From: an uncultured Anaerolineaceae bacterium
GTDB taxonomy: Bacteria > Chloroflexota > Anaerolineae > Anaerolineales > UBA11579
Length of the DNA stretch: 64,000 nucleotides
Reading direction: 5' to 3'
NCBI GenBank assembly: GCA_964572455.1
Contig: CAZNFL010000009.1
Span: forward strand, 443-64,442
Part shown: positions 46,170 through 64,000 of the stretch, piece after piece
Layout of the letters: each line of letters begins with the position of its first letter
How positions within the stretch are numbered: position 1 is the first letter of the stretch
The notes under the pieces: model-generated
What the model was told of the DNA's origin: nothing
The model's input: the letters and a program-made list of their open reading frames with translations, nothing else
The model's database searches: none
Made by a program: the position numbers and the translations under genes

Positions 46170-46282
46170 AGAAACCTCTTTACACTTGTTTGCTGAGTTC
46201 AGATAGCCTGACCGTTCCGATTACAATCCTTGCACAGGCAGGCTTTAGTCGTTACAATGAAACAAGTGTTCTAGATATTATC

Positions 46283-47461: not shown

Positions 47462-47471
47462 GGACGAGGAT

Positions 47472-48095
47472 ATGGCAGAGAAAACTTATCAGATCGGTCA
47501 CCTGTTGCGTTCCGGCATCGCCGGTTTCGTGGCCGGCTGCCCGATCGTCGACCAGGAGATCCCGCGCTTCGGCGAGCTGGTGCACGCGCCGATGGGCGGC
47601 AAGGACCGCATTTACGGAATTGTACACGAGATCAGCATCGCCGATGACGGGCTGGTGCGCCAGATCATCAACACCAGCCAGCCGGTGGACCCGACCGTGA
47701 TCGCCGACAACCGCACCAACCGCACCGTGCCGATGGAGATCAGCGTGCTGGCCGTCGGATTCCAGCGCGAAGGCGCCATCCACCATTTGCTGCCGCCGCG
47801 CGCCCCACTCAGCCTGGACCTGCTGCACCAATGCAGCGACGCCGAGTTGGCCGAGTTCACCAACGCCGGCCGCTTCGGTTATCTGCGCCACCTGCTGCGC
47901 TCCGGCATGGCCGGTGACCTGCCGGTGGCCGAGCTGATCGCCGCCCACGTGCAGCAAGCCGCGGCCGCCAACGAGAAGGCCGGCAACCGCGATTGGCGCA
48001 AGCGCGTGTCGCAAGAACTGATCACGCTGCTGCGCGACGACTATGCATTGCTGATGCAAGTCCTTTCAGCACTCTCAGATGCAATTGAGAATTGA
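47472..48095 (+). CDS. hypothetical protein between NurA and HerA genes
   Basis: 207 aa, 10 nt after the NurA stop. N-terminal beta-rich part, C-terminal helical part. Its stop codon abuts the left inverted repeat of the four-helix-bundle cassette. Confidence 0.6.
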   Translation: MAEKTYQIGHLLRSGIAGFVAGCPIVDQEIPRFGELVHAPMGGKDRIYGIVHEISIADDGLVRQIINTSQPVDPTVIADNRTNRTVPMEISVLAVGFQREGAIHHLLPPRAPLSLDLLHQCSDAELAEFTNAGRFGYLRHLLRSGMAGDLPVAELIAAHVQQAAAANEKAGNRDWRKRVSQELITLLRDDYALLMQVLSALSDAIEN

Positions 48096-48525
48096 GAATT
48101 TAGAATTTCGAATGAAAAACGAAAATGGCTTGACGCGCGAGAAGGATCTCCCAGCCCGGACCAAGCAGTTTGGTTTGCGGGTCATCCGCCTTGTCGATTC
48201 TCTGCCGCGCAGCAAGAGCGCTACCGTGATCGGCAACCAGTTGTTGCGCTCGGCCACCTCCGTCGGCGCTAACTATCGCGCCGCTTGCCGTGGTCGTTCG
48301 CGGGCAGATTTCATCGCCAAACTCGGCATTGCACTCGAAGAAGCGGACGAGTCTCTATATTGGATGGAAATGTTACTTGAGGCCGACTTGGTTGCTAGGC
48401 CAAAAATCCTGAGCTTGATCGACGAGGCAAATCAACTCGTCGCAATCCTGACGGCCTCTACAAAAACCGCACGAGCCAACATCGCAAGGAAATAATTTTC
48501 AATGGGAAACCAAATTCTAAATTCT
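48095..48525. mobile_element. putative inserted cassette: four-helix-bundle gene bracketed by a perfect 14-bp inverted repeat
   Basis: AGAATTTAGAATTT at 48095-48108 and its exact reverse complement AAATTCTAAATTCT at 48512-48525. AT-rich flanks inside a GC-rich operon. Confidence 0.5.
48112..48495 (+). CDS. four-helix-bundle protein (23S rRNA intervening-sequence protein family)
   Basis: FGLRVIRLVDSLPRS...IGNQLLRSATSVGANYRAA...SRADFIAKLGIALEEADESLYWMEML is the family signature. Confidence 0.85.
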   Translation: MKNENGLTREKDLPARTKQFGLRVIRLVDSLPRSKSATVIGNQLLRSATSVGANYRAACRGRSRADFIAKLGIALEEADESLYWMEMLLEADLVARPKILSLIDEANQLVAILTASTKTARANIARK

Positions 48526-48569
48526 AAAATAAACAATCTAAATTTCTTTTTGTTTTATCGAGGTTTGGT

Positions 48570-50225
48570 ATGAGCGAAAACATACATGGCCGAAAGCGCA
48601 TCGGCTTCGTCGTCGGCGGCAGCCTGAAGACGAACCTGCAGGTGCGGCTCGAGGTGCCTGCGCACGAAGTGCAGGAGGGCGCCTTCGTCGTCATCCAAAG
48701 CGATGACTGGTTCTTCCATGGCCTGGTCACCGACCTGCAGCTCGGCTCCACCGACCCGCGCTTCGCCGATGAGCAGACCGCCAACCGCCTGCCAGGCGAG
48801 CTGGCCGACCTGCTGCACGGCCAGACTTTATATACCAACCTCGAGATCCTGCCCGCCCTGATGATCACCGGCGGCGAGGACCCCCAGGGGCCGCTGCCGG
48901 TCAAGACCGTGCCCGCCCACCACGCGCCGGTCATGCTGGCCAGCGAGGGCGACATCGCCGAGATCTTCGGCGACCCGGCCGCCAAGGGTAACTTCGTGAT
49001 CGGCACGACCAGGGAACAAGGCCACCCGGTGGCTATCGACTTGCGCAAGTTCATCCAGCGCTCCTCGGGCATCTTCGGCGCCACCGGCACCGGCAAGAGC
49101 TTCCTCACCCGCCTGCTGCTGGCGGGCCTCATCCACCACAACGCCGCCTCGGTGCTGGTGCTGGACATGCACAACGAGTACGCCTTCGACGACCAGGATG
49201 AGAACGGCAACCCGGTCACCGGGCTGAAGACCAAGTTCCCCGCCAAGTTGCGCGTCGTCGGGTTGGGCGCCGGCGCCACCATCCGCGGCGCCGCGCCGGA
49301 TTTCAACCTCGAGATCGCCATGAGCGACATCATGCCCGAGGACATCGAGCTGCTGACCCGTGAGCTCAACCTCAAGGAGACCACTCCCACGACCCTGGAT
49401 GCGCTGGCGACCAGCTTTGGCCGCGGCGCCTGGTTCCAGGAATTCAAGAATATGAAGTCCGAGGGCACCATCGAGGGCGACGACGGCAAGCGCATGCCGG
49501 CACCGGGCAGCGTGGCCGCCTGGGCGGCCGAAACCGGCGCCAACCCGATGGCCGCCGAGGGCTTGCACAACAAGCTGCGCCGTGTGTTCAACAAGCCTTA
49601 TATTGCCGAGCGCCCGGCCGCCGACACCATCGGCGAGATCGTCAAGATGCTGGAGGCTGGGCAGCACGTGGTGCTGTCCTTCGGGCAGCACGAGAGCGAC
49701 CTGGACTATTTGCTGGTGAGCAACTTGCTCACCCGCCGCATCCGCCAGCGCTGGGAGCTAGCAACCAACAGCTATAGAACCAGCGGCAAGCAGGAGCCGC
49801 GGCCGCTGGTGATCGCGCTGGAGGAGGCGCACAAACTGCTCAACCGCGAGATGGCGGTGCAGACCACCTTCAGCACCATTGCCCGCGAGCTGCGCAAATA
49901 CTACGTCACCCTGCTGATCATCGACCAGCGGCCCAGCCAGATCTACGACGAGGTCATGTCGCAGCTCGGCACGCGGGTCTCGGGCTGGCTGGGCGACGAC
50001 GACGACATCCGCGCCGTGCTCTCCGGGCTGGCAGGAAGGGAACAACTAAAGGGCATGTTGGCCAGGCTACAACCAAAAGAAGAAGTCCTCCTGCTTGGCT
50101 GGGGCGTCCCAATGCCTCTTCCAGTCAAGTCGAGAAGGTACGACGATACTTTCTGGCGGGAGCTGCTGGGGAAGGCGGGAGGCAAGCGGAGCGCCAAGGA
50201 TATCAATGAGGAGCTGGGGTTTTAG
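48570..50225 (+). CDS. HerA-like (DUF87, FtsK/HerA superfamily) ATPase
   Basis: N-terminal barrel-like segment, Walker A GATGTGKSF, VIALEEAHKL, LLIIDQRPSQI. Confidence 0.8.
   Translation: MSENIHGRKRIGFVVGGSLKTNLQVRLEVPAHEVQEGAFVVIQSDDWFFHGLVTDLQLGSTDPRFADEQTANRLPGELADLLHGQTLYTNLEILPALMITGGEDPQGPLPVKTVPAHHAPVMLASEGDIAEIFGDPAAKGNFVIGTTREQGHPVAIDLRKFIQRSSGIFGATGTGKSFLTRLLLAGLIHHNAASVLVLDMHNEYAFDDQDENGNPVTGLKTKFPAKLRVVGLGAGATIRGAAPDFNLEIAMSDIMPEDIELLTRELNLKETTPTTLDALATSFGRGAWFQEFKNMKSEGTIEGDDGKRMPAPGSVAAWAAETGANPMAAEGLHNKLRRVFNKPYIAERPAADTIGEIVKMLEAGQHVVLSFGQHESDLDYLLVSNLLTRRIRQRWELATNSYRTSGKQEPRPLVIALEEAHKLLNREMAVQTTFSTIARELRKYYVTLLIIDQRPSQIYDEVMSQLGTRVSGWLGDDDDIRAVLSGLAGREQLKGMLARLQPKEEVLLLGWGVPMPLPVKSRRYDDTFWRELLGKAGGKRSAKDINEELGF
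50141..50225 (+). repeat. herA 3'-end repeat, copy 1 (functional gene end)
   Basis: Encodes RRYDDTFWRELLGKAGGKRSAKDINEELGF*. Confidence 0.85.
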
Positions 50226-50469
50226 AACGGAAGCTAAAACAATATGGGAGTAGCTGAGGTATTTATGACTGTTTTAGATGACAAGTTGATTTTCCCACTG
50301 CTTCAAATTTTTTTTATGTTACTTTTTATCAACGGCTTGAGAATAGAATGGCGTTGTTTTACCAGAAAAAGCAATTTAACCATGAAAGTAACCAGGAGCA
50401 AACAGAGCTGGGCGTATTTCGAACTTTTCTTTGGTATTGCTTCACTAATTGCACTGGAGACAATCGCTT

Positions 50470-50554
50470 CGACGACACCTTCTGGCAGGAGCTGCTGGGC
50501 AAAGCGGGCGGGAAACGGAGCGTGAAGGAGATCAACGAGGAGCTGGGGTTTTAG
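50470..50554 (+). repeat. herA 3'-end repeat, copy 2
   Basis: Reads (R)FDDTFWQELLGKAGGKRSVKEINEELGF*; about 80% nt identity to copy 1 by eye. Confidence 0.85.
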
Positions 50555-50570
50555 GGCAACTGTTCCGGTA

Positions 50571-51545
50571 TTAATCCTTTCGCGGGATTAGTTTCAGTGC
50601 ATAATCTTTTGCGTTTTCTAAAATTTCATCATATTCGCTCGAGTGGATGGTGTTAACTTCGTAATCTTTTCTTACGTTATCAATAAATGAAGCGAAATCC
50701 TCATTTTGTTCACAAAGTTTATTCATTAATTCCCAATCAAGCTGTCCGCGTTCCTTTGCAGGAAAAACAACCTCGGAAGAATCAATGTCCTCTAGATCGA
50801 GACGGATGATGCCAATTCCAAAAGCTGTGGACAATCTCTCAAGTTCAGCTAATAAGTCGTCGCGTTGTTCAACAGTTGAACCAACTAAATATCCTTCATT
50901 GGCCCAGGATGAATTTGACACTGCCTGAAAAAACGCTTCGCGATAATTATTGCGATTTATTTGTTTTTTTATTTCAAATGAATAAAACTTTATATTTGAT
51001 CGATCTACAACCTTACTCAAAGCCATCAATTTTGCATTCCATTCTTCAATTGGGATATGGAAGCCGACCATATCGGGATGAGTCCATTCGTTTATTTCTG
51101 CATGTTTTGATTTTTCGTGAAAGATCGTTTTTGAATATATTTGCCGGCCCCTATTAAAAGTTGGGTTTGAGTAAACATAATATGCTAATAATGGATGAAG
51201 TTCACGTTCGCGAAAAACGTGCGCAGTGGGATCTTTATATTTTCCATTATCCCCAACAGAAAGGGCCTTAATCAATTCTGGCGTAATTTCGCTTCCACGA
51301 GATTTTAAAAAGAATCTAGCCGGATACTCTCCAATTTTTAAGAATTGAGATTTTTGATTCTTTACATCTACATATAATCGAGCACCTAATGTTTGCCAAG
51401 GCGTTTTGCCTTGAGATTGTAATTTTTGGTCAAGATTCATTTCCTTTCCCCGCTCCCATATTTCCTGATAGGTCATTGGCGCAGCGGCCGCTTTCAAAAC
51501 TTCCTCTGCGAAATCCAAGAATGTCAAATCAGCTTGCATGGACAT
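50571..51545 (-). CDS. HARE-HTH domain protein with PD-(D/E)xK nuclease-like C-terminal region (HrgA/COG2958-like)
   Basis: N-terminal LTFLDFAEEVLKAAAAPMTYQEIWERG...FLKIGEYPARFFLK is HARE-HTH. The central WTHPDMVGF ... FYSFEIKK matches PD...ExK spacing. Confidence 0.6.
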   Translation of the reverse strand: MSMQADLTFLDFAEEVLKAAAAPMTYQEIWERGKEMNLDQKLQSQGKTPWQTLGARLYVDVKNQKSQFLKIGEYPARFFLKSRGSEITPELIKALSVGDNGKYKDPTAHVFRERELHPLLAYYVYSNPTFNRGRQIYSKTIFHEKSKHAEINEWTHPDMVGFHIPIEEWNAKLMALSKVVDRSNIKFYSFEIKKQINRNNYREAFFQAVSNSSWANEGYLVGSTVEQRDDLLAELERLSTAFGIGIIRLDLEDIDSSEVVFPAKERGQLDWELMNKLCEQNEDFASFIDNVRKDYEVNTIHSSEYDEILENAKDYALKLIPRKD

Positions 51546-51670
51546 TGCCTTTACTCATCTTTTTAGAAGGGCTATTTCTCGATTATACATGCCAATCTCC
51601 GATCTCTCTCTTCCCGCAATCGAACCGGAGGCGTGGTCCAGCATGGATGTTTTTGGTAGTTATAGTAGTT

Positions 51671-51809
51671 TGCGCAGCTTCGCTGCGCGGTAGAAGCTAC
51701 TCGGCTGTGCCGAGTAACGCTTCTCCAGCGGGACCATGGGATTTTTGATTGCTGCGCAGCTTCGCTGCGCGGTAGAAGCTACTCGGCTGTGCCGAGTAAC
51801 GCTTCTCCA
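51671..51809 (+). repeat. two identical 57-nt units of hairpin repeat family B
   Basis: tgcgcagcttcgctgcgcggtagaagctactcggctgtgccgagtaacgcttctcca at 51671-51727 and 51753-51809. Each unit contains the imperfect palindrome gaagctactcggc/gccgagtaacgcttc. Confidence 0.9.
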
Positions 51810-52080
51810 TGGCTATACCGGGATTTTTTGATTTACAGATTGCGGCAGTCTTAAGAGAGAGATTCGGATAGCTCTTCGCTGCTCCTTCGCTTCGCTCAGG
51901 GCAGGCTCTGGCTTCGCTGCTGAAGTGCGGCGTGCGACAAAAACCGTCGCGAACGCCGTCCTCGCAATGACGAACCCTTTATAGGACGTGGCGGGAGATT
52001 GCTTCGCATCGTCACGCCTTGCCTGCGGCAGGCTTACTAGCTCGCAATGACGGTGGAGGCGCATGGTAGGTATGTGGCGT

Positions 52081-52140
52081 TGCTTCGCAACGCCTTGGGA
52101 GAAGCTACTCGCCTACGTCGAGTAACGCTTCTCCATGGCT
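52081..52140 (+). repeat. family B hairpin repeat, diverged copy
   Basis: ...gagaagctactcgcctacgtcgagtaacgcttctccatggct. Confidence 0.75.
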
Positions 52141-52181
52141 AAAGCGTGGTAGGTATGTAAGTATTGTCGGTGTAGGCGGTT

Positions 52182-52226
52182 TGGTAACTATGGTAATTAT
52201 GGTAGTTATGGTAATCATGGTAGGTT
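52182..52226 (+). repeat. five tandem 9-nt units TGGTARNTA
   Basis: tggtaacta tggtaatta tggtagtta tggtaatca tggtaggtt. The array overlaps the last codons and stop of the 52215 gene. Single TGGTAGKTA motifs also occur at 51654, 52064 and 52147. Confidence 0.8.
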
Positions 52227-52862
52227 TGGTTGCCCTTGGGTGAAGGTAGCGCGCAAGAAAGCATTGCGCCGCTCCTCCGCTGGGTCGGGCAGCTCGGGCC
52301 CAGCTTCGATGGACTCCTGGATAAGGCCGTTTAGCAGCTCATTGACCGAGAGTTTGAGCGATTTATCGATGGCGGCGGGGACGGCGAAGTAGTAGATGCC
52401 CCCGGGGCGGAAGAATTTCATGGCGAAGCCTTTTTTGACCAAGACGGTGAGGCGCTTGTGGGTGTTGGCGGGGTCCTGAACCAGGACGCGGCTCAACTGG
52501 GCCAGGGAGGACACTCCGGCGTAGCGCAGGGCGATGAGAGCCTCCTTTTGGCGGTATGAGAGATCGACCAGGGGCATGACGGAGCGGGATTTGGCCAGAG
52601 CTTTTCTCAGCATTTTTCGCTCCCAGTCGCCCATGTTATCCAGGGCGGATTTGAGCGCAAACAGCGGATCTAACCCGGCTTTCAGGGCGCGCTCGATGCG
52701 CTTGCAAAAGCGCGGCCAGGGGCCGTCAAGGAAGTCCAGGTGGGAGGAGGGCAAGCCCTGCAAGACGGCGTACAACATTTCTATGGTGAGCATGGCGGCA
52801 TTATCGGGCGAAACGGGAGTTTCGTGCGAAAATGGGGCGAATGTCAAGGGGCTGGACGGCAA
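52215..52862 (-). CDS. hypothetical protein with winged-helix (MarR-like) segment
   Basis: YRQKEALIALRYAGVSSLAQLSRVLVQDPANTHKRLTVLVKKGFAMKF. TTG start at 52862 overlaps herA-repeat copy 3, so ATG 52793 may be the true start. GC-rich, unlike its neighbours. Confidence 0.5.
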   Translation of the reverse strand: MPSSPLTFAPFSHETPVSPDNAAMLTIEMLYAVLQGLPSSHLDFLDGPWPRFCKRIERALKAGLDPLFALKSALDNMGDWERKMLRKALAKSRSVMPLVDLSYRQKEALIALRYAGVSSLAQLSRVLVQDPANTHKRLTVLVKKGFAMKFFRPGGIYYFAVPAAIDKSLKLSVNELLNGLIQESIEAGPELPDPAEERRNAFLRATFTQGQPNLP

Positions 52863-52910
52863 GGGGCGGGCCGGGGAGCGGAGCGCCTCAATGAGGAACT
52901 GTAATTTTAG
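52843..52910 (+). repeat. herA 3'-end repeat, copy 3 (degenerate)
   Basis: gtcaaggggctggacggcaaggggcgggccggggagcggagcgcc[7-nt gap]tcaatgaggaactgtaattttag aligns to copy 1. Confidence 0.7.
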
Positions 52911-53000
52911 CTAGGAGGTGGCCTCGGGAAACAAAACGAGTTGGTTAAACATGGCAGAGAATAATCGTTATAGTAGAATTCTGGCACTAGGACGGGAACC

Positions 53001-54158
53001 TTGTTGCCAAAAATATTGCATGTATCATCGAGATTCTTAGAAGGAGTGAAGTCTACAACACCCGTACACAACAATACGCATAATTTGTATATATATCCAG
53101 CTAGGTTTTCCCCTCTTTTTGTAAAAAATAGTCTTCTCGAGTTTGCAACTACAAAGGATCTAGTTCTTGACCCATTTGCCGGCGGGGGAACAACATTGGT
53201 TGAGGCCATGAACAGTGGGATAAAGTCTGTTGGGTTTGACACCAATTCACTTGCCTGTTTTATTTCGAAAGTTAAAACAACGCCTCTGACGGATTTGGAA
53301 AGAAAGCATATCTTAGATTGGCTTCCGTGCGCTATTGATCAAGCAAATTTGCATACAGTTCTCAGCAAAAAGTATCGAAATGATGAGCGGGGATATAAGG
53401 ACGGGCTTCCATGGACAATCAGAAAATTTCTTGAATTAATAGTCCGGAGCATGGATGATCTCCGCTCCACAACTGAGAGAGATTTTATAAGATGCACTCT
53501 TTTAAGAGTTGGACAATGGTCTTTGGGGAAACTGTATATTCCCAGCGCTGAGGAGGTAAGGCTCTTTTTCTCTGAATTAGTACAAAAATCCCTAGACGCG
53601 AACAGGGAGCAAAGTCAAAATCTTTCACAAAAAAGACCTAGTATATTTAATAAGTCAATCGATGAAATTGACAAAGCATGGTGGAAGAATACCATTGGTA
53701 AAAAACCCAGTTTAGTTATTACATCACCTCCGTATCCAAATGTCCATGTTTTGTATCATAGATGGCAAATCATGGGGCGCAAGGAAACTGCTGCACCTTA
53801 CTGGATCGCAAATAGGCTTGACGGGAAAAGCCAGTCGTATTACACATTGGGAGCAAGAACAAAAAAGGGAGTAGACGATTATTTTCTTGCTGTGCAAAGC
53901 ATTTTTTCTAAACTCTATGAATTACTTGCGCCAAATGCACTGGTCATCCAATTAGTTGGGTTTTCAAACGATAAGCAACATTTCAATAAGTATTTGGCAG
54001 GAATGGAAAATGCTGGCTTTTTGCGACTAACGATGCAATCAGGTTTTAAATTTTTCCCTTATCTAAAAAGAGAAGTACCTCACAGGCGTTGGTATGCAAC
54101 AATCAAGGAAAGTTTGAGCACTTCATCTGAGTTTCTAATTATTCACAAAAAAGGGTAG
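53001..54158 (+). CDS. DNA amino-methyltransferase (N6A/N4C type)
   Basis: Motif I VLDPFAGGGTTLVEA near the N-terminus and motif IV LVITSPPYPNV ~180 aa later. TTG start. Confidence 0.75.
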   Translation: MLPKILHVSSRFLEGVKSTTPVHNNTHNLYIYPARFSPLFVKNSLLEFATTKDLVLDPFAGGGTTLVEAMNSGIKSVGFDTNSLACFISKVKTTPLTDLERKHILDWLPCAIDQANLHTVLSKKYRNDERGYKDGLPWTIRKFLELIVRSMDDLRSTTERDFIRCTLLRVGQWSLGKLYIPSAEEVRLFFSELVQKSLDANREQSQNLSQKRPSIFNKSIDEIDKAWWKNTIGKKPSLVITSPPYPNVHVLYHRWQIMGRKETAAPYWIANRLDGKSQSYYTLGARTKKGVDDYFLAVQSIFSKLYELLAPNALVIQLVGFSNDKQHFNKYLAGMENAGFLRLTMQSGFKFFPYLKREVPHRRWYATIKESLSTSSEFLIIHKKG

Positions 54159-54164
54159 GTCTTT

Positions 54165-56600
54165 ATGATTAATAATCCAAGGGATTTGTTTTTAGCTCTG
54201 CTAAACTCCACAAAGCCAAGCGGAGTAAAAGTTATTTTGCGGGAAATTGGCGATCATTCTGAAGCTGAGGTTGGAGAAACATTTGGACCTCTGAAGTTAT
54301 GCTGGAAGTTTTATGGCGACAACGAATCTAATATCTCGACTATAAATATCGCGACACAGCCGGAACGCAGTCTGATTGAGCGGATTACAAACGCAATCGA
54401 TGCTGTAATTGAAGGCGAATTTCATAAACGTGGAGGCAAACCTCCTCAATCACCAATGGAAGCTGTTTCATTGTGGTTTGGGAGGCCGACAAGTACCGCT
54501 GAAGGCGGACTGTCGAACTGGGAGGACTACGCTATAAAAGGGCATGATAAACATGTGAACGTCGTCCTCCTTGGAGGAGATGACGACATAAAGCCAACAA
54601 TAGACGTATTGGATGACGGAATAGGCATCAAAGAGGGGTTTTTCCATTTAACAATTCTGAGCCTTCAAGAAGGAAATAAAAGAAAAAAGAAGTATCTCGC
54701 AGGAGCTTTTGGCCAAGGTGGGTCGTCAACTCTAGGATTTAGCGAATTTACGTTCATTGCCTCTAGGCATCTAGATCAACCACAAAGGATCTCATTTACT
54801 TTGGTTAAAAAGCTCATTCTTTCGGAAGATTATAAGGATGATGCTTATGTCTATCTTGCTATCGCAGATGGGGCCGCATCAGAAGTGCCGCACTTTGATA
54901 TAACCGAAGACATAGAACTTTACAATGATTTGTCCAATAGCAATTTACACCTTAAAAATGGGACGCTTGTAAGATCCTACGGATACAGTTTGGAAAGGTA
55001 CAACAAACCACTATCACCTAGCGCAAACAATTTGTATCATCTCCTGCACACAATGATGTTCGATCCCTTGTTGCCTTTCCGAGTTATCGATTTAAGAAAT
55101 CCCCAGGCTTTGAAAAACGAGCTTGTTACAGGGTCGCGCAACCGACTAATGAAGCTCGCTCTCAAGAAGGAAGAGGGCGAAGATGAGGAGGGTCGAACAG
55201 TATTAAAACACCATGGTGTAATGGAAATGGTAAACCCAATAAGCAATAACGAGCCTAGTATTGGGGTTGAATATTGGGTCGTATTTAATTACAAAAAACA
55301 AAAAGGCGAATTAGTATTACGACCATCATCAAATGAGCTTTTTGTAAACAAAGATCGACCAATACTTGGAACTGTCAACGGTCAAAATCAAGGCGAGGAA
55401 ACTGCTCATTTTATTCGTAAGCTTAATTTATCTTTGCTTTCCCGGCATATGGTTATTCACATCAACGTAACCAACGCTAATAAAGACCTTAGAAATCAAC
55501 TCCTATCTACAACAAGAGAGGGTTTTCGTAAAGACAAGGCTTACTATGAGCTTTTAAGAATTGTCGAAGAAAGAATTAAGGATGACGATGCATTGTATGC
55601 ATTAGAAAATGAATTAGTCGAAAGTATCTTTTCCCAAACAGACGAAACGGATGAAACTGTAAAGAGAGAGATAGTTAAACTTTTGCGAAACAGCGGTTAT
55701 GAAGTTAGTGCCCAAGGTTACGTATTAGCCCCAGGAGATGGTGATACCGAAGATCCAACGGGAATCATTAGAAGGCCAAGGCGCCCGCCAAAACCGTTAG
55801 ACCCTCTCCTTACCCTGGCTTACCCAGACGTAACGAAGTTCAAAATAGTTCAACCAGAAGGAAAACTCTCAATACGAGTTGGGAAATATCGACAAGTAAA
55901 AGTTGAGACTGATGCAAATTCCCGATTCGACAGAGAGCACAGAATTGCCATCAGATTTTCTCCCGAGTTGCTGGAACAAGCATCTAAGTCCCTTCTTAAA
56001 GGTGGTCGGATTAATTGGCGTATCCGGGTAAAAGAGGGTCAGGATCCTGGGGGGACTGGGAGAGTAATCGCAAGTCTGACTTTGCCTGATGGGGGTCAGC
56101 TCACCGACCAAATCGATTACGAAATCTTGCCCGCACCACCAGCAGGGGATGAAGAGATTTTGGGTAAAGTTCCTCCATTTGAAATAGTAAGAATCGATCC
56201 GGTTACACAGAGCGAGAAATTTCAACAAATCTGGCAAGAAGTCCCAGAAACAGAAATTCCAAACATAGCGTACAAGCCGCTAGAATCTAATGGGGGAATA
56301 AAAGTGTTTTACTCAATAGGCTTCAAGCACTACGCAAGCCAATTCGAAAAATTAAAACGTCAAGAATCTTTAGCAAAACTATTTCAACAGTCCTACGAAA
56401 TTTGGATTGCTTATCACGCAATCTTACAACACCGAGCCCGAAAAGAGAGCGCCTATTTGAATTCTCAAATTTCCGAGACTCAATTAGATCAAACTTCTGA
56501 AATTGAACGGGCGTTAGTGGCTGAATTGCAAGTTAAGCAAGCCTTACAAATTGCGGCGTTGAAGCATGCGCAAATAAAAGCAAGTCAGACTTCAGATTGA
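54165..56600 (+). CDS. GHKL (Bergerat-fold, MORC/Hsp90-like) ATPase with ~600-aa uncharacterised C-terminal region
   Basis: ERITNAIDA (N box, aa 72-80), VLDDGIGI (G1, aa 148-155), GAFGQGGSS (G2, aa 180-188). Starts 7 nt after the MTase stop. Confidence 0.7.
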   Translation: MINNPRDLFLALLNSTKPSGVKVILREIGDHSEAEVGETFGPLKLCWKFYGDNESNISTINIATQPERSLIERITNAIDAVIEGEFHKRGGKPPQSPMEAVSLWFGRPTSTAEGGLSNWEDYAIKGHDKHVNVVLLGGDDDIKPTIDVLDDGIGIKEGFFHLTILSLQEGNKRKKKYLAGAFGQGGSSTLGFSEFTFIASRHLDQPQRISFTLVKKLILSEDYKDDAYVYLAIADGAASEVPHFDITEDIELYNDLSNSNLHLKNGTLVRSYGYSLERYNKPLSPSANNLYHLLHTMMFDPLLPFRVIDLRNPQALKNELVTGSRNRLMKLALKKEEGEDEEGRTVLKHHGVMEMVNPISNNEPSIGVEYWVVFNYKKQKGELVLRPSSNELFVNKDRPILGTVNGQNQGEETAHFIRKLNLSLLSRHMVIHINVTNANKDLRNQLLSTTREGFRKDKAYYELLRIVEERIKDDDALYALENELVESIFSQTDETDETVKREIVKLLRNSGYEVSAQGYVLAPGDGDTEDPTGIIRRPRRPPKPLDPLLTLAYPDVTKFKIVQPEGKLSIRVGKYRQVKVETDANSRFDREHRIAIRFSPELLEQASKSLLKGGRINWRIRVKEGQDPGGTGRVIASLTLPDGGQLTDQIDYEILPAPPAGDEEILGKVPPFEIVRIDPVTQSEKFQQIWQEVPETEIPNIAYKPLESNGGIKVFYSIGFKHYASQFEKLKRQESLAKLFQQSYEIWIAYHAILQHRARKESAYLNSQISETQLDQTSEIERALVAELQVKQALQIAALKHAQIKASQTSD

Positions 56601-56698
56601 ATTAGTAGACCTTTAATTTCAAAATTATTTTTTGGCCATATTTGACGCTTTTTGTCGGTGTTGCTGATTCGCCCGCTGACGTCAGCGGCGGCCGCCGC

Positions 56699-56780
56699 CC
56701 GTTATCCTTGGAGGAGCTATTAGGTAAGACAGGCGGCATGTGGATCGCGAAGCAGATCAATGAGGGAGCCTTGGTTTTGA
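56699..56780 (+). repeat. herA 3'-end repeat, copy 4 (degenerate)
   Basis: tccttggaggagctattaggtaagacaggcggcatgtggatcgcgaagcagatcaatgagggagccttggttttga reads SLEELLGKTGGMWIAKQINEG. Confidence 0.7.
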
Positions 56781-56828
56781 AGTTGTACGCATCTTTCGCG
56801 GTAGAATAGGTATGATAAGAGGGAAAAA

Positions 56829-57380
56829 ATGATGGAAGTCATTACCGATAAGAAACAAATTTCAGAGGCGCAAGAGTTTTTTCGTAAATCCTTGGTCGAC
56901 CGTGCCGTGTATTCGAAGGAAGTAAACATTGGATATCAAGGCGGGTTAGTCAAAAGGCCAGTTTCTTGGATTCCTGAATTAGGTCTTTGGGCACATTTTG
57001 GCTTTCCCGGAGAAGATAAATCAAATGGAGAAAGATTTTGGTGTGTTTTTGGCTTTGGAGAACCAGGAAAAATGGTTTCCATCAATTGCGAAATAAATTC
57101 GCCGGTTAGCGGCAGAAATCGCCGAACGGGTGGTGTTTATTTACGCGACTCAAACATGAGAGTGCATTTGGGCCACCGAGGTAACATAAACGCTCGCGGC
57201 CGAATATCAAAAGAGATATTCTTTTCAACTATTCGCGGGAAGATTGTACAAGCCTCTGATGGAGATATGATGAATCCCGTTGTTTTGGTTGGCGAGCTCT
57301 ATAAATCAGATTTCCCGCTTAGGGTAAGGGATTTCATTCTGGAAGTAAAAAGACTCAAAAGCATATTGAGGGGAAGTTAG
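56829..57380 (+). CDS. hypothetical protein
   Basis: 183 aa with a GAGGG RBS, 3 nt upstream of the Mrr gene; no motif recognised. Confidence 0.5.
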   Translation: MMEVITDKKQISEAQEFFRKSLVDRAVYSKEVNIGYQGGLVKRPVSWIPELGLWAHFGFPGEDKSNGERFWCVFGFGEPGKMVSINCEINSPVSGRNRRTGGVYLRDSNMRVHLGHRGNINARGRISKEIFFSTIRGKIVQASDGDMMNPVVLVGELYKSDFPLRVRDFILEVKRLKSILRGS

Positions 57381-57383
57381 TTT

Positions 57384-58311
57384 ATGCCAATTCCAGGTTA
57401 TCAATCGATTATGCTTCCGCTTTTATATTTATCCCGAGATGGAAAACCTCATGCGATTCATGATGCAGAAGCCGAATTAGCATTGCAGTTTAATGTCTCA
57501 GAAGAGGAACGTGCCAGACTGCTTCCCAGTGGACAGAATGCCGTTTTTTCAAATAAGGTGTGGTGGGCTCGTACACACCTAAAGAAAGCTGGTTTGGTTG
57601 AATATCCAAAGAAGGCTCATTTTCAAATCACCACCCGTGGAAAACAAGTACTCTCTGAAAATCCAACAAACATAGGACATAAAATTTTTAAAGCAATTTC
57701 CAGAATATGCCGAATTTCGAAAAGTAAGTCAAGTAGACACGGTTGAAGAAGCACAGGATCAAGTAATCGACGGTTTGACACCGGAAGAAACACTTGAAAG
57801 TGCTTACTTGAGTATTAGGACTGATTTATCTGACCGTTTAATAACTTATGTAACAAACAGTACACCTGCTTTCTTTGAAAAACTAGTAGTTGAACTCCTC
57901 GTGAAAATGGGTTATGGTGGTTCGCAGCGCGATGCAGCAAAAGTAGTAGGCCAAAGTGGTGATGAGGGTATTGATGGAATTATTGATGAAGACAGACTAG
58001 GCTTAGACAGCATTTACATTCAAGCAAAAAAGTGGAATAAGAATACGCCAATTGGCCGTTCAGAAATACAGAAATTTGCTGGAGCCTTACAGGGAAAAAG
58101 GGCGAAAAAAGGTATTTTTATAACAACAGCTCGGTTTTCTGAGGACGCTCAGGCTTTTGCTGGATCAATTGATGCAAAAATTGTTCTGATAGATGGGAAG
58201 AGACTCACAGAACTCATGATTGATCATGGCGTTGGAGTTACAACTAGAACTCTGTATGAAATTAAATATTTAGATACTGACTATTTTGGTGAGAGTGCAG
58301 TCCACGAATAA
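57384..58311 (+). pseudogene. mrr: Mrr-family type IV restriction endonuclease, interrupted by a +1 frame break
   Basis: 57384-57746 is the Mrr_N winged helix (IPGYQSIMLPLL...). 57676-58311 is the linker plus Mrr catalytic core (GDEGIDGII...IYIQAKKW...GIFITTARFS). Removing one G at 57675/57676 gives ...NPTNIDIKFLKQFPEYAEFRKV... Confidence 0.8.
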
Positions 58312-58371
58312 ACATCCTCCCCTTTACCAATCCGAAAAAGCCGACGTTGCAGGCTGCTGCGTCACGTGCGC

Positions 58372-58452
58372 CAAGCCGATAGATGTGAGGAACTGCTATA
58401 GACGGGGCGGCAGGCGGAGCGCCAAGATAGCGATTAGGAGCTAGGGTTTTTT
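58372..58452 (+). repeat. herA 3'-end repeat, copy 5 (degenerate)
   Basis: gaggaactgctatagacggggcggcaggcggagcgccaagatagcgattaggagctagggtttt aligns to gggagctgctggggaaggcgggaggcaagcggagcgccaaggatatcaatgaggagctggggtttt. Confidence 0.7.
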
Positions 58453-58455
58453 GGC

Positions 58456-61005
58456 TCACAACCGAGATCTTGGAGCCAATAGCAACATAACCCTGTGCGC
58501 TAGCCTAATAACCGGCTTGCCGAGTTTATCGAGATTCTCGGCCGCTTTTATTAGACCGTCGATGCTAACCGAATACCATTTTTTACTAGGGATCGTCGCA
58601 GTCGCCTCTTCCACAAGTCGTTCGAGGTCGTCTGCTACCTCTTTTGCCTGATCCGGTGCTAATTCTTTACTCATTCTTGCAACAGCTTCGGCAAGTTGTT
58701 CTAAGCTTTGTTTTAATTCAGTTGATATATCTGCATTTCTGGCTTTATTAAAACTGTTTTGTATCGAACCACCTGTAACAAGGTTATCAATCTTTGTACC
58801 ATCTCCAAAATAGAAGTTTTGAGTCACTGTTCCTTCTCCTTCATAGCTCTCCCGGTATTCCTTACTTATAACATCATCGATCAACGACCGCACATTCACC
58901 ATTTTGTAACTTTGCTGACATTGAATCCTATTTTGCTTATCCTCAATGAATTTATGGAGAACTTCGAAACGAAAAAAATATGGGTCCGCTTTTGATTTGC
59001 ATTCTACACAGTTACACGGGATTAACTTGTCATACTTCGGTCTTCTAAAGCTAGCGTGAATATTATCCATCTGGTACATGATTATCGTCATTAGCTCTTT
59101 CTTGTGCGGACCGGATACTCTAACTTGAATTTCACGCTTGCTATAATATTCGACGACTTGGGCTTTTGACTTCTCTTTCTCAAGGACAACCCCGCTTTTC
59201 CAAACATACTTTTGCTCTAGAATAAACCTATGTAAAAGCACAATCAATTGAGTGAGTATGCCTTTGGGCATGAACTCATAAGCGTATCGCAACAATAAAT
59301 TATTATCGGTTTCCCATTCATAAATTGGTTGGTTCTCAGTCAAAAGCTGAGGGGCAATGTAGGTATCAGAACTATCGGGGATCTTATAACATAGACGAAA
59401 CCTCATCATTAATTGCAAAAGTTCCCCATGCATGTTGGAATATTCCTCGGATCCCCATATATTTATTAAGTCTGAGCGAGTGAACTGTCCTAGATTTGTT
59501 ACAACGATAGGATTATCCAGAACTTTGTAAACCGCCCGAGTCGCCCACTCTGGTTTTAGGAAAACTGTTCTCCTCAAGAGATCATCATCCTGAAAATGTA
59601 AAAAAACCCCAATATCATGTAAGTACCCACTCAATTGCAAGCAATCTCTTTCGTCGTGAAAACCGTTTTGCCTGCATAGTGCAAAGTAGTTCTCTAAGGA
59701 GATGTAATTATGAACGTCCCCCTCAAGAAGGCCTCGAACATCCGACCACGATTTCGGAAGCATAGTCCCTACATGTGGCAATGATATTACATAGTGCTTT
59801 ATCTCCTCCTTTATTTTCTCCAACCCTCGATTGTCAGAAAAATTTGCAGGGAGCACTTCTTTTAGATTCGTAAATTCTCCTCTTAGTACCCGTTCATTAA
59901 TTTCCCTTCGCCGATCTTGTTTTTCGTTTTTTATTATCAGTAGAGGACTGTTATCACTTAATAGCTCGATCAGGTTTAGCCAATAATAAAAGTCAGTATC
60001 TTCCTTTCTCGAATCAGCAACTAAGGTATATAGAGATCGCCTAGTTAAGAAAAACTGATGAGTCGTATGATAAATCTCTTGTCCTCCAAAATCCCAAATA
60101 TTTAATCTAAAGTTCTTTTCTTTATAGGGAAATGTCCAATTAAAAATGTCGACTCCCCTAGTTGTAACTTCCTCCTTCAAATTGTAAGTTGAATCAATTA
60201 TTTTATTAGCCAATGTGGTCTTGCCAGCTCCCGCTTCCCCTAATATTAGCAATTTAGCTTCGTACAGTAAATCTCTGCCTAATTCTAATTGCTGATAATA
60301 TTTACCAATTTCATAGAGGCCTTTTCGTGCAATCTCTGGGGGAGGCACAATTAAGGGATTTGAGGACAAAGCTAATTCTTGAAGTCGCTCAAGGCCAACA
60401 ATTTCCACAGGCAAGACCTCTATTTGATTGAATTCTAGATCTAGGTATACAAGTCCCACTAGACCTGATATTGATGTGTTCAACTCCTTTATATTATTCT
60501 CGTTTAAGTTGAGGGTTCGCAAATTACTTAACGCAGATAGGTCGTTTGGAAGTTTAGACAGCCGATTTGAACTCAGATCGAGCCATTGCAACCGTATTAG
60601 CTTGTTTATCCCTTCCGATAGTTCGGCAATTCTGTTATAGCTCAGATCTAGGATTCTTAAATTAACCAGGTCAAAAATAACTAGGGGGATCGTTTCAAAA
60701 CGGTTATCACTTAGATGCAGATTGGTAAGCGATTTTAGTTTTCCAAAGGAACTGGGCAATGTTTGAAGGTTACTTCCATTCAACTTCAGTTCTTTTAATT
60801 TCTTCAATTTCAGAATATCATCAGGAACCTCTGAGATAAAATTTCCTTCCAACTGCAATTCCTCAAGCCAGGGTAAGTCAAACACATCAGCCGGAATCTC
60901 AGTTAGTGGTTTATGGCTTTCTCGCTTCGGTCTAAGGTCGAGCAGCCGAAAGCGACCGTCTTTGGCCTGGCTTATCTGCTTTGCCGCCCATTTAGGGACT
61001 ATCAA
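58456..61005 (-). CDS. Roco-type protein: LRR + Roc GTPase + COR + unassigned C-terminal domain
   Basis: About 9 LRRs (LxxLxLxxNxL). P-loop GEAGAGKTT, switch II WDFGGQE, then a long COR-like region. The last ~150 aa are unassigned. TTG start. Confidence 0.75.
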   Translation of the reverse strand: MIVPKWAAKQISQAKDGRFRLLDLRPKRESHKPLTEIPADVFDLPWLEELQLEGNFISEVPDDILKLKKLKELKLNGSNLQTLPSSFGKLKSLTNLHLSDNRFETIPLVIFDLVNLRILDLSYNRIAELSEGINKLIRLQWLDLSSNRLSKLPNDLSALSNLRTLNLNENNIKELNTSISGLVGLVYLDLEFNQIEVLPVEIVGLERLQELALSSNPLIVPPPEIARKGLYEIGKYYQQLELGRDLLYEAKLLILGEAGAGKTTLANKIIDSTYNLKEEVTTRGVDIFNWTFPYKEKNFRLNIWDFGGQEIYHTTHQFFLTRRSLYTLVADSRKEDTDFYYWLNLIELLSDNSPLLIIKNEKQDRRREINERVLRGEFTNLKEVLPANFSDNRGLEKIKEEIKHYVISLPHVGTMLPKSWSDVRGLLEGDVHNYISLENYFALCRQNGFHDERDCLQLSGYLHDIGVFLHFQDDDLLRRTVFLKPEWATRAVYKVLDNPIVVTNLGQFTRSDLINIWGSEEYSNMHGELLQLMMRFRLCYKIPDSSDTYIAPQLLTENQPIYEWETDNNLLLRYAYEFMPKGILTQLIVLLHRFILEQKYVWKSGVVLEKEKSKAQVVEYYSKREIQVRVSGPHKKELMTIIMYQMDNIHASFRRPKYDKLIPCNCVECKSKADPYFFRFEVLHKFIEDKQNRIQCQQSYKMVNVRSLIDDVISKEYRESYEGEGTVTQNFYFGDGTKIDNLVTGGSIQNSFNKARNADISTELKQSLEQLAEAVARMSKELAPDQAKEVADDLERLVEEATATIPSKKWYSVSIDGLIKAAENLDKLGKPVIRLAHRVMLLLAPRSRL

Positions 61006-61415
61006 GTTGCCCTCCTTAAGAGTACATCATCATAATCATAATCCTAATTCTGCCGCATGGGATCCCATGCAGCTCACTCCCCTAGTTTCCTCCACATGGG
61101 GTGCTCCAGCAAATCATGCAGTTGGGAAGCACTTACCTACACAATCTTCCTCTCCTTTCCCCGCGCCTGCCCGGGGTTGTCTAGGCCTTTTGCGTTCCCT
61201 CGGCTTTAGCCCAGTAGGTCCTCCAATGCGTAACGAATTGGCCCCGCTACCAGTCCGGGAAGCCGTCGCCCATATCTGGAAGTCGCAGTTGGTGAACAGC
61301 AACCCGCTAACAGCAGCTTTAGCTATTTGCATATTTTGTCCAGATGCACTAAGCTTTAGCCTTGGCTAAAATGAAACCGGATTGACAAAGTCAGGTCTAG
61401 AAAGGTGGGTAAAAA

Positions 61416-61901
61416 ATGCAAACCGAATTGTCTGAACTAGCGTTTTCACACCCTTGGCAATTCTTCGCTGGCTTGGCGGTTGTTTGGTTTTTAGGGTCGG
61501 GTGTTGATAAGATACTTGCTGTAGTAAAAAAAGACTTCGATATCAACAGACCCAAGATCGCAAAGCTTAGATCGTGGAAGGATGTTTTCCAAATTCCATC
61601 AGAAAGAGGGTCAAGTTGGATAGGGCGCTCGGAACGAGTTTTATTTTACCTCTCATGGTTTCTTGTCCCCGAGATGATTGCGGGTTGGTTACTATTCAAG
61701 GTAGCTTCGAAATGGGAGGTTTGGAATAACATATACAAAATGCCAGCCAAGTTCGAACGAAACACTGTGAAGGATAGTTTAGTTGCGAGAATTTGGCTGG
61801 GAGCAAGGACCTATCAAAGATTTCTATTAGGAGCTTCACTAAATATTTTGGATTCAATTATTGGACTCATTGTTTTTACCACTCTAGTTAGATATCTCTA
61901 G
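61416..61901 (+). CDS. hypothetical membrane protein
   Basis: 161 aa with 3-4 hydrophobic helices and an AAAGGTGGG RBS. Confidence 0.5.
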   Translation: MQTELSELAFSHPWQFFAGLAVVWFLGSGVDKILAVVKKDFDINRPKIAKLRSWKDVFQIPSERGSSWIGRSERVLFYLSWFLVPEMIAGWLLFKVASKWEVWNNIYKMPAKFERNTVKDSLVARIWLGARTYQRFLLGASLNILDSIIGLIVFTTLVRYL

Positions 61902-62018
61902 AAATAGGCACAAGCACTCTGCGATTCCCTCCCGCCCGCCTAGCTGCGGTCGGCGGCCACACTACCAGTCCGGGAAGCCGTCGTCGCAGGGGGCGCCCTG
62001 CGATGCTGCGCATCGCGA

Positions 62019-62138
62019 GAGAAGCTACTCGGCTAGCGCCGAGTAACGCTTCTCCAGCCTGCTCGCGGTTACGAGGCTTGGGATAGCTACGAAATCGCGG
62101 AAGAAACTATGCGGCTGACGCCGCATGACGCTTCTCCA
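62019..62138 (+). repeat. two diverged family B hairpin repeat units
   Basis: gagaagctactcggctagcgccgagtaacgcttctcca (62019-62056) and ggaagaaactatgcggctgacgccgcatgacgcttctcca (62099-62138). Confidence 0.7.
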
Positions 62139-62222
62139 GCCTGGCCCGCGGTATGACTGGCAGCCCAATCATCATGCCTCCTCAATCTGGAAATCCGCCG
62201 TCCCGCTGCCGTCGGCGGCCGC

Positions 62223-62314
62223 CGTTACGATGCTAAATTCTGGGAGGAGCTATTGGGCCAAGGCGGGAAGGAACCGGGGAGGAGGAGATCAAAGAGGAAT
62301 GGGCGAAATATTAA
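62223..62314 (+). repeat. herA 3'-end repeat, copy 6 (degenerate, frameshifted)
   Basis: Reads RYDAKFWEELLGQGGKEPG, then after a frame slip EEEIKEEWAKY*. Confidence 0.7.
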
Positions 62315-62336: not shown

Positions 62337-62372
62337 AAAACTGATGCGGGCTTCTTAAGCCCGCATCAGTTT
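62337..62372 (-). terminator. rho-independent terminator
   Basis: ctgatgcgggc/gcccgcatcag stem with a T-run on the minus strand, immediately after the 62371 gene stop. Confidence 0.7.
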
Positions 62373-62874
62373 ACATTTGAGATATTTCTTTGTCAACTCG
62401 ACGCAAATCCAGTCTCTCTAGGTTCCTCAATATCTGATATTCGCGAATTAATTCTTCCGGTGGCTTTGCTCCATTGTTTAGAAACTTGGCAGAATAACGG
62501 TCAACATGATCCAGCACTCGACCCAACAAGACATTCGTTTCAAAGAAAATCCCCTTTTGCGATCTCTCCGTGCAAAATTTTCTAATTTGGAGTGCCAGTT
62601 CACGCTCATTCATTCCCGAAAGGCTGTCGACGTTCTTTAAAAGAACCTCATTCAAAAACGCTTCGGCAAGCTCAACGCGCTCCTGACGTGATATTTTGGT
62701 TTTCTCTTGAATGCGCATTTCCACCATTCGTATTTCGCCTATCTCTTTCCGGCCCTGGTTTCTTGGAAACTCGAGCAAAGAATTCCCAGCGGCCACCGGG
62801 GCTAACTCAAGCCTGGTGGCAAACAGCTCCTGAAAGACCTCTAGTATTCGTTTCATTTTATCATACACTCCCAA
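62371..62874 (-). CDS. hypothetical protein
   Basis: 167 aa, helical; no motif recognised. Confidence 0.45.
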   Translation of the reverse strand: MGVYDKMKRILEVFQELFATRLELAPVAAGNSLLEFPRNQGRKEIGEIRMVEMRIQEKTKISRQERVELAEAFLNEVLLKNVDSLSGMNERELALQIRKFCTERSQKGIFFETNVLLGRVLDHVDRYSAKFLNNGAKPPEELIREYQILRNLERLDLRRVDKEISQM

Positions 62875-63021
62875 TTACTGGATAGGAACACATAGATTTT
62901 TATTTAAACCGGTCTGATAGCTAGTCCGTTACGGCTGACAGAGACAGAAAACTGCGCTGTTTAATCAACGCAGTTCTTTGCCTTTGGGCGAAAGAAAAAG
63001 CTTTATTTTGTAACTAGACGA

Positions 63022-63609: not shown

Positions 63610-63675
63610 TTGGCACCTCGTTGTTTGGTTCGACCTTATACCTATTATACGAAATTCCCTGCGCGAATCTAACAG

Positions 63676-63999: not shown

Positions 64000-64000
64000 T

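Follow-up and report, generated by a model that had tools for sequence, protein, structure and literature searches.

How has the 3′ end of one conserved gene come to be repeated again and again in the DNA that follows it, with other genes placed between the repeats? The question is raised by a 64,000-nucleotide stretch of contig CAZNFL010000009.1 (hereafter the window) from an uncultured member of the Anaerolineales (Chloroflexota), in which a conserved operon at 46190-50225 encodes NurA, a protein of 207 amino acids (aa), a small protein of the 23S_rRNA_IVP family and HerA. The repeated segment is the last ~130 nucleotides (nt) of herA (50095-50225), here called the tail, and five extra copies of it, all on the plus strand, lie within the AT-rich 12 kb downstream of the gene. 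The GC content falls from 0.66 to 0.44 at position 50226 and is ~0.40-0.49 from there to the window end, apart from a GC-richer exception of 0.57 at 52001-53000 around a 215-aa gene. This AT-rich island runs off the window at 64000; a further sequence, L001, extends it by ~275 nt past that position. The anchor gene and the tail copies are as follows.

48570-50225, plus strand: herA, the anchor gene, 551 aa (Pfam DUF87/HerA_C/HAS-barrel)
50465-50554, plus strand: tail copy 2; nhmmer 51.1 bits, E 8e-15 (50465-50553); blastn 85.9% over 85 nt; frame and stop codon intact
52865-52910, plus strand: tail copy 3; nhmmer 6.9 bits (52876-52909); 72% identity over 53 columns; left part deleted, 7-nt gap
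56683-56780, plus strand: tail copy 4; nhmmer 20.7 bits (56705-56777); reads PADVSGGRRPLSLEELLGKTGGMWIAKQINEGALVL; internal deletion
58388-58452, plus strand: tail copy 5; nhmmer 18.1 bits (58388-58450); 85% identity over 47 nt; stops and indels
62203-62311, plus strand: tail copy 6; nhmmer 14.4 bits (62223-62300); reads PAAVGGRRYDAKFWEELLGQGGKEPG, then a frame slip

The copies were searched for by using nhmmer with the last 110-150 nt of herA as the query, and the scores were judged against 200 dinucleotide shuffles of the 13.8 kb downstream of the gene (best shuffle, 6.6 bits) and against the real 48.5 kb upstream (best match, 4.5 bits). On this scale tail copies 2, 4, 5 and 6, at 14-51 bits, are clearly non-random, and copy 6 also matches a profile built from 79 orthologous herA tails with an E value of 1.6e-8. 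Copy 3 is borderline by score and is backed by synteny. It adjoins the start of the 215-aa gene, which is on the minus strand, and therefore lies after this gene in the orientation of herA. We accept copy 3 as a probable tail because the same gene precedes a herA-tail copy in two related loci, L002 (where the copy is clean and 186 nt long) and L006.

Direct reading shows 12 differences from the gene across the 85 nt of copy 2, and these changes are mostly synonymous, which indicates that both sequences evolved as coding DNA. It also serves as the in-frame end of a 68-aa open reading frame (ORF) with an ATG start (50348-50554). The ~25 nt that copies 4 and 6 have in common on their upstream side prove to be further herA codons (P-x-x-V-x-x-R-R-Y), such that the similarity reaches to approximately -105 relative to the herA stop codon, the reference point for all such positions given here. 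An earlier interpretation of this DNA made from the letters alone (the sequence-only reading) had described five same-strand repeats of the gene end, the switch in composition at 50226, the intact reading frame of copy 2 with its mostly synonymous differences, and the shared upstream segment. All of these descriptions hold, and its translations of the tail copies match ours.

All of the sequences considered here are metagenome-assembled genomes (MAGs) or metagenome contigs, and so one might ask whether an assembly artefact has joined strain variants at a shared repeat. This explanation is close to negligible in probability. The pattern is present in more than 40 assemblies produced by different pipelines, and the copies are only 72-95% identical, which makes them too divergent to collapse in an assembly graph. 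Moreover, an independently assembled Logan contig (L083) reproduces window positions 51780-62027, which argues against misassembly.

The same arrangement recurs among relatives of the window genome. We found 343 HerA relatives in Anaerolineales genomes, and the comparison set consists of 80 orthologous herA loci (designated by L-numbers), each from a separate species-level genome. The closest relative found is MAG LejiaD_56_9 (L002), whose HerA is 94% identical; neither HerA nor the HARE-HTH protein of the window has an identical sequence on record. A search with the 79-tail profile together with self-comparison by blastn showed that 15 of the 80 loci carry additional copies of the tail; among the 66 loci that have at least 1.5 kb of sequence downstream of herA, the number is 12. 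Every extra copy, in the window and in these 15 loci, is located downstream of herA and in direct orientation. Upstream of herA, zero copies passed the nhmmer profile search in ~0.63 Mb from the 80 loci (compared with ~0.58 Mb available downstream), and the sole upstream match by self-blastn, on the opposite strand in L004, is at chance level (E 8.5e-4). A separate scan of metagenomes for exact tail patterns returned 80 contigs totalling 388 kb, and 24 of these carry at least two tails, always on the same strand. The tail peptide itself (RRYDDxFWxELLG...ELGF, followed by the stop codon) is kept in 80 of 80 loci and is conserved both before and after insertion.

The attachment of this pattern to herA was evaluated by a census in which 2276 ORF 3′ ends were tested for a direct copy at most 6 kb downstream. 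The census yielded 27 such copies, 13 of which belong to the 81 herA tails included, and the hits outside herA are mostly tandem or repetitive extragenic palindrome (REP)-like repeats. Thus the copies are not scattered independently of herA, and their scores exceed those of shuffled sequence. Four ORFs other than herA have a direct 40-100-nt copy of their 3′ end 0.4-1 kb downstream (L009 at 21235, plus strand; L072 at 5904, plus strand; L079 at 7380, minus strand; L075 at 9914, minus strand), and judging from these sequences displacement of this kind may occasionally occur elsewhere too.

Shorter remnants, which we call mini-tails, were also observed after the herA stop codon in L064 (+1 to +50), L070 (+1 to +50), L079 (+20 to +65) and L067 (+150 to +184). 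Their sequence is (G)AGCAGAATTTG...AAGGAGTTGGGATTTTAG, split by a GC-rich hairpin, CCTGTCCCGCCAAAGGCGGGGAAGG. By sequence, mini-tails appear to be old displacement scars that carry no cargo. Because the profile search missed them, the true frequency of displacement would exceed our count.

What happens during an acquisition can be read from loci that differ by a single insert. L081 represents an empty site, in which herA is followed by the native flank TCTTTGGGACGCGGA. Relative to L081, L047 carries an additional ~820 bp and L060 an additional ~830 bp. In both loci, the displaced copy matches the native tail and continues directly into the native flank, whereas the tail that remains in the gene carries foreign substitutions and, in L047, also a different stop codon. 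The downstream copy is thus what used to be the end of the resident gene, with its original flank still attached, and the present gene end is a surrogate that was imported. The two inserts carry different cargo and begin at different left edges, -41 in L047 and -96 in L060, which correspond to 41 and 96 duplicated nt. This pattern indicates that incoming DNA brings a surrogate gene end and that the old end is shifted downstream, as the sequence-only reading had proposed along with the accretion of cassettes by repeated insertion.

A similar case is provided by L009, in which ~200 nt have been inserted at the herA end relative to its sister loci L008 and L010. The last 100 nt of herA in L009 differ from the sisters by 24-27 mismatches, compared with 6 between L008 and L010, and the mismatches are dense in the last ~50 nt, where they cluster at approximately -52 to -2. 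The crossover therefore lies inside the homologous segment and not at its extreme end in L047, where the gene is foreign from at least -25, and apparently also in L009. A scan of mismatch density along herA for donor tracts is confounded by uneven protein conservation. The window tails were likewise compared with L002 to find the native one, and 13-14 mismatches were counted either way.

The boundaries of the duplicated segments also speak to the process. Left edges were mapped at -25, -31, -41, -48, -53, -56, -63, -74, -84, -90, -96, -109, -116, -130 to -143, -157, -175 and -187, with no preferred position. Right edges range from -4 to +56 and usually coincide with the stop codon; they pass beyond it in L002 (+56), L064 (+47) and L035 (+17), where the two flanks resemble each other. 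The right end of the tail is present in all copies, including the most truncated, and no conserved motif follows the herA stop codon. In L002 and L060 the copies are mosaics, in which identical blocks of ~60-120 nt lie beside blocks rich in synonymous differences. Such mosaics are the outcome expected from crossover or gene conversion within homology.

The DNA between tails has the character of compact operons. In relatives and metagenomes, the intervals between tails cluster at ~750 bp (median), and their cargo includes AbrB-PIN, MNT-HEPN, DUF433-DUF5615, BrnT-BrnA and Phd-VapC pairs, an NYN protein, KAP and DUF4143 NTPases, and Mrr. Cargo ORFs are mostly oriented with herA (34 plus and 9 minus), and some inserts are tiny (100-240 nt) and free of genes. 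Comparison of orthologous loci revealed shared cassettes at differing array positions in addition to the empty sites. An AbrB-PIN cassette is first in the L060 array and second in L064, with similar tail junctions at -96 and -93, and an MNT-HEPN cassette is first in L035 and last in L073. Alignments run unbroken from cargo into tail fragment between L035 and L073 and between L064 and L079, such that cargo and the tail fragment on its right appear to move as a unit. In three genome pairs the cassettes are more similar than the bodies of the herA genes (80 versus 73%, 78 versus 75% and 84 versus 79% identity), which fits horizontal exchange. For the other pairs that share cassettes, vertical descent is possible.

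These comparisons bear on the simplest alternative, in which the herA end is duplicated locally in each lineage by tandem duplication or replication slippage and the cargo arrives independently. The 47-56 nt of identical downstream flank that are duplicated in L002 and L064 would be accounted for in this way, as would the tiny gene-free inserts. However, the copies differ mainly at synonymous sites, as expected for coding evolution in separate lineages, and the same unit of cassette plus tail is present in distant genomes. A tandem event would also copy the intervening cargo, and this is not seen. We consider local duplication very improbable.

If the arrays were assembled by site-specific recombination, a recombinase might be encoded nearby. 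ORFs of at least 80 aa from the window, the 80 genome loci and the 80 metagenome contigs (~2 Mb in total) were searched by phmmer with IntI1, XerD, the C terminus of lambda Int and gamma-delta resolvase, and with an iterated Xer profile. As the sequence-only reading had stated for the window, its 64 kb lack ORFs that resemble Xer, IntI, lambda Int or a resolvase, and the 388 kb of metagenome contigs likewise gave none. Within 10 kb of herA in the 80 genome loci, the sole recombinase match was one Xer-like ORF ~10 kb upstream in L020, and a Pfam analysis of 89 downstream ORFs placed no recombinase among the 25 top families listed. An integrase acting in cis was rejected on the basis of these seeded and iterated searches. 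A known RNA or tRNA target beneath the repeat was also rejected, as Rfam and ARAGORN identified neither an RNA nor a tRNA in the island.

Two further candidates were tried and set aside. For a phage- or plasmid-borne attP, a scan of IMG/VR with the tail peptide, which has limited sensitivity, gave no tail-bearing phage contig and just one spurious match in the middle of an ORF. For a diversity-generating retroelement, the changes that separate copy 1 (the gene) from copy 2 (T>C, G>A, G>C, A>C, C>G and similar) show no adenine specificity, and no reverse transcriptase domain was found in the neighbouring genes scanned with Pfam. The Avd-like fold of the 23S_rRNA_IVP gene upstream appears to be coincidental with regard to this retroelement reading.

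Integrase-bearing islands or prophages could nonetheless have entered repeatedly at an attB site in herA and later lost their integrases and most of their content. Integration of this kind classically leaves a surrogate end and a displaced native one, base composition changes at the boundary, and there is a precedent in the same phylum, in that the ssrA direct repeat occurs 11 times downstream of ssrA in Dehalococcoides strain VS (McMurdie et al., 2009; PMC2764846). Yet zero integrases are found downstream of herA in ~40 independent arrays, and the intervals of ~750 bp hold intact, compact toxin-antitoxin operons and not debris. The herA repeat is also variable in length, unlike the 19-20 bp repeat of ssrA, and the IMG/VR scan, within its sensitivity, lends no help. 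A history of decayed islands is thus distinctly improbable.

An integron-like platform deserves more attention. Here a recombinase encoded elsewhere would recognise the last ~25 nt of herA and move circular cassettes that carry one tail each. Many features of the arrays agree with this proposal: the cassettes are compact, mostly point the same way as herA, have in common with chromosomal integrons an abundance of toxin-antitoxin genes, and are common to genomes in which they occupy differing array positions. Likewise, the right end of the tail is retained however truncated the copy, the left boundary of each cassette is at a stop codon, and herA is strongly preferred over other genes. The proposal is opposed by the lack of any IntI-, Xer- or resolvase-like gene in the sequences searched (apart from the ORF in L020) and of a conserved motif after the stop codon. 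Moreover, in L047, and apparently in L009, foreign sequence in the in-gene tail extends leftward well beyond the last 25 nt. An attC-like hairpin was not found either, since the herA tail and copy 2 fold as single strands no better than their shuffles (z +1.07, +0.32 and +1.35), and on this ground the attC model was rejected. We judge an integron-like platform to be unlikely, with a genuine if small chance of being correct.

Variable edges and the lack of a linked recombinase, a motif after the stop codon or a hairpin together leave site-specific recombination unsupported. The two mechanisms offered by the sequence-only reading, site-specific integration and an integron-like array, are therefore not supported, whereas its judgement that neither standard model fits cleanly is upheld.

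We prefer the explanation that these loci are homology-anchored arrays of displaced 3′ ends, built by RecA-type homologous recombination without a dedicated integrase, and we hold this to be somewhat probable. Donor DNA from related Anaerolineales, consisting of a herA end with a small cargo behind it, would recombine with the resident herA. On the far side, the exchange could be completed by an illegitimate join within the resident herA tail, which would create a new cassette. Alternatively, a tail fragment already attached to a cassette could pair with the resident tail, which would spread an existing cassette, or a small circle could be inserted by a single crossover. Since a complete surrogate end arrives with the donor DNA, the gene itself would stay whole. 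The cargo would land directly after the stop codon, and the old end would become a dead fragment of arbitrary length that is still joined to its former flank. Repetition of this process would stack cassettes, and recombination between direct repeats could delete or reshuffle them. The preference for herA would be self-perpetuating, as in a founder effect, because the cassettes themselves carry herA homology. We infer RecA-type recombination as the agent, and the incoming DNA may be linear or circular.

Several observations weigh against this explanation. Only 0-60 nt separate the ends of cargo ORFs from the tail fragment and similarity mostly stops exactly at the stop codon, and junctions this tidy would not obviously be produced by random illegitimate joining. 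Some duplicated segments are just 25-41 nt in length, which is short for RecA-type recombination. Among displaced tails outside the window, 22 of the 29 near-full ones keep their frame and stop codon, which implies very recent events, ongoing gene conversion or a function that is unaccounted for. The strong preference for herA is explained solely as a self-perpetuating founder effect. Finally, the recombinase searches were seeded with four proteins, and novel or distant enzymes, or those encoded elsewhere in the genome, would escape them.

The tidy junctions, the segments of 25-41 nt and the in-frame tails leave room for a dedicated enzyme acting in trans. In its boldest form, this idea would make the herA tail the docking site of an integron-like capture system, in which either an unrecognised recombinase would be encoded in trans or the system itself would be coupled to the NurA-HerA end-resection machine. 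We regard this proposal as doubtful. If it were true, a whole bacterial order would be collecting and exchanging toxin-antitoxin and defence cassettes at one chromosomal address.

With homology-anchored displacement as the working explanation, the contents of the island in the window can be described as a series of cassettes.

50226-50464, no strand: cassette 1, an AT-rich spacer of 239 nt with no supported gene, only a hydrophobic 93-aa ORF (50244-50525)
50571-51545, minus strand: HARE-HTH protein, 324 aa, cargo (Pfam HARE-HTH, E 2.5e-14)
52215-52862, minus strand: 215-aa gene, possibly a winged helix-turn-helix protein (MarR_2 at E 0.22 only)
53001-54158, plus strand: N6/N4 DNA methyltransferase (Pfam; PADLOC MTase_II)
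54165-56600, plus strand: 811-aa protein, partner of the methyltransferase (HATPase_c_3 at E 0.03 only)
from 56829, plus strand: 183-aa protein, cargo, paired with the split Mrr (cassette 56829-58311)
57384-57746 and 57775-58311, plus strand: split Mrr, consisting of Mrr_N (120 aa) and Mrr_cat (178 aa) (Pfam, PADLOC)
58456-61005, minus strand: Roco-type GTPase with leucine-rich repeat (LRR), Roc and COR domains (Pfam COR-A, COR-B, Roc, LRR)
61416-61901, plus strand: 161-aa ORF in the same cassette as the Roco GTPase
62371-64000, minus strand: further AT-rich cargo, with a 167-aa ORF, a sigma-70 region-4 protein (63022-63609) and a 107-aa ORF

The ORFs after herA in the window are of mixed orientations, and this cargo is larger than that of relatives and from its annotations looks defence-related. 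Most gene assignments made in the sequence-only reading stand, namely the HARE-HTH protein, the N6/N4 methyltransferase, Mrr (now seen to be split), the LRR-Roc-COR protein and the sigma-70 region-4 protein, whereas its GHKL ATPase (the 811-aa protein) and winged helix-turn-helix protein (the 215-aa gene) are weak at the E values listed. The cassette with the 811-aa protein (53001-56600) gave no sequence match in the PDB. The 215-aa gene cassette is common to the window, L002, L006 and L007, where it is always just downstream of herA (tblastn 59-79%), and its region matches that of L002 at 81.5% over 720 nt by blastn. L006 also carries the Mrr pair, as a 186-aa protein and an intact 312-aa Mrr with a tail copy after it, and by comparison with that intact gene the split Mrr cassette of the window is probably eroding.

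The island contains a second type of repeat, which we treat as a family separate from the tails. These are bulged hairpins of ~50-76 nt, present in five copies.

51671-51746, 51753-51828 and 52097-52146, plus strand: bulged hairpin repeat, three copies within the island
62012-62061 and 62094-62143, plus strand: bulged hairpin repeat, two copies within the island

The hairpin has the form GAGAAGC-TACTCGGC / GCCGAGTA-AC-GCTTCTC, with a conserved 2-nt bulge, and the copies in 51671-52146 can also be written GAGAAGC-TACTCGGC...GCCGAGTAACGCTTCTC. Several have a second small hairpin ahead of them, and there are two pairs in 82-nt tandem. Exact copies in the window are confined to the AT-rich island, and L006 contains a single exact copy of the core 15-mer. 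As single-stranded DNA, all but the copy at 62094 (z -1.2) form strong folds (z -3.8 to -5.4, and -3.9 to -5.4 for the three copies at 51671-52146), and no match to Rfam was found. Two independent Logan contigs break exactly at hairpin repeats. A role for these repeats in cassette recombination was rejected, as cassette borders lie elsewhere and related arrays lack these hairpins. They could be REP-like elements or resemble miniature inverted-repeat transposable elements, and a candidate ORF that by eye resembles a REP-associated tyrosine transposase was noticed in the metagenome array L103.

Other features of the window lie outside the island, including the first two genes of the conserved operon.

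46190-47461, plus strand: NurA gene (Pfam NurA, E 1.2e-18), start of the conserved NurA-HerA operon
47472-48095, plus strand: conserved 207-aa gene, syntenic with L002

The 138-aa 23S_rRNA_IVP-family gene (48079-48495), which encodes a four-helix bundle with an Avd-like fold, follows the 207-aa gene and precedes herA. The two arms of an imperfect inverted repeat with GAATT-rich motifs (AATTGAGAATTGAGAATTTAGAATT) flank it at 48083-48113 and 48514-48544, and at this position in L002 both the ORF (96 aa) and the repeats are different. The arrangement suggests that the position between the 207-aa gene and herA is a second small insertion site. Short intergenic repeats of 30-80 nt around the NurA-HerA operon, which by their sequence probably form another REP-like family, are common to the window (40335-40383 and 9330-9409) and L002 (6287-6423 and 9818-9910). 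Two further repeats are unrelated to herA. The minus-strand ORF ends at 6967 and 8742, 1775 nt apart, are 100% identical over their last 120 nt, a similarity that indicates a duplicated gene or repeat, and a tandem repeat lies immediately after a plus-strand ORF that ends at 25350.

By what route small toxin-antitoxin and defence islets reach chromosomes when they carry no mobility gene is an open question (PMC13617665). At herA, each acquisition leaves a readable scar in the form of a displaced gene end, and these scars vary in length and decay between events. It should therefore be possible to reconstruct, across an order of uncultured bacteria, in what sequence and from which lineages cassettes were acquired and how they turned over. 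The displacement known from polymorphic toxin genes can also work on an ordinary conserved gene whose product is left unchanged, and this effectively makes the herA end an integrase-free cassette dock. There is also a practical consequence: herA-tail repeats can be mistaken for att sites, and island finders that assume integrases could mis-model such loci.

The closest parallels to these arrays are found among polymorphic toxins. Displacement of rhs tips has been modelled as homologous recombination with circular intermediates that leaves conserved-core fragments differing in length (Jackson et al., 2009; PMC2935791), and effector-immunity arrays of the type VI secretion system in Vibrio have been attributed to homology-facilitated illegitimate recombination (Kirchberger et al., 2017; PMC5361080). 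As in these arrays and those of contact-dependent inhibition (CDI) systems, an intact gene is followed by dissociated 3′ modules in the same orientation with gene fragments of variable length, no integrase is involved, and newer modules can displace older ones downstream. The fragments also derive from the same gene clade, in that the herA copies match the Anaerolineales tail profile and translate as related HerA tails. Unlike in the rhs, CDI and type VI systems, where the displaced part is a different toxin tip and the protein changes, here the HerA tail is the same and the protein is unchanged. The payload consists of separate, complete genes (toxin-antitoxin pairs, restriction-modification parts, a Roco GTPase), and the anchor is a gene of a conserved DNA-repair operon in Chloroflexota and not a polymorphic toxin.

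Within the same phylum, the ssrA islands of Dehalococcoides (McMurdie et al., 2009; PMC2764846) likewise combine a single-copy conserved gene, many direct repeats of its 3′ end and acquired cargo of low GC content. Those islands have fixed repeats of 19-20 bp and blocks of integrase or recombination genes, whereas the herA repeats span 25-187 nt and have no linked recombinase. Integrase-mediated islands in general share with herA the restoration of the gene by a surrogate end, while the native end stays contiguous with its native flank (L047, L060 and L009). The resemblance to integrons resides in compact, mostly co-oriented cassettes of one or two genes, each ending in a repeat, with toxin-antitoxin genes common and an order that differs between genomes. 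The herA arrays differ from integrons in that there is no IntI and the repeat is derived from coding sequence and is not a folded attC. Also unlike integron cassettes, those at herA appear to carry their own putative -10-like promoter sequences just after the stop codon.

The minimal mobile elements of Neisseria are small units that lie between core genes, carry no mobility genes and probably spread by homologous recombination at their flanks. Toxin-antitoxin islets without mobile-element genes, for which recombination at the core genes on either side has been proposed as the means of spread (Belot et al., 2026; PMC13617665), are similarly like the herA arrays in being small accessory units between core genes that lack mobility genes and would be passed on by homologous recombination at the core flanks. 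Both the islets and the Neisseria elements leave no duplicated scar, whereas each acquisition at herA leaves behind a displaced tail.

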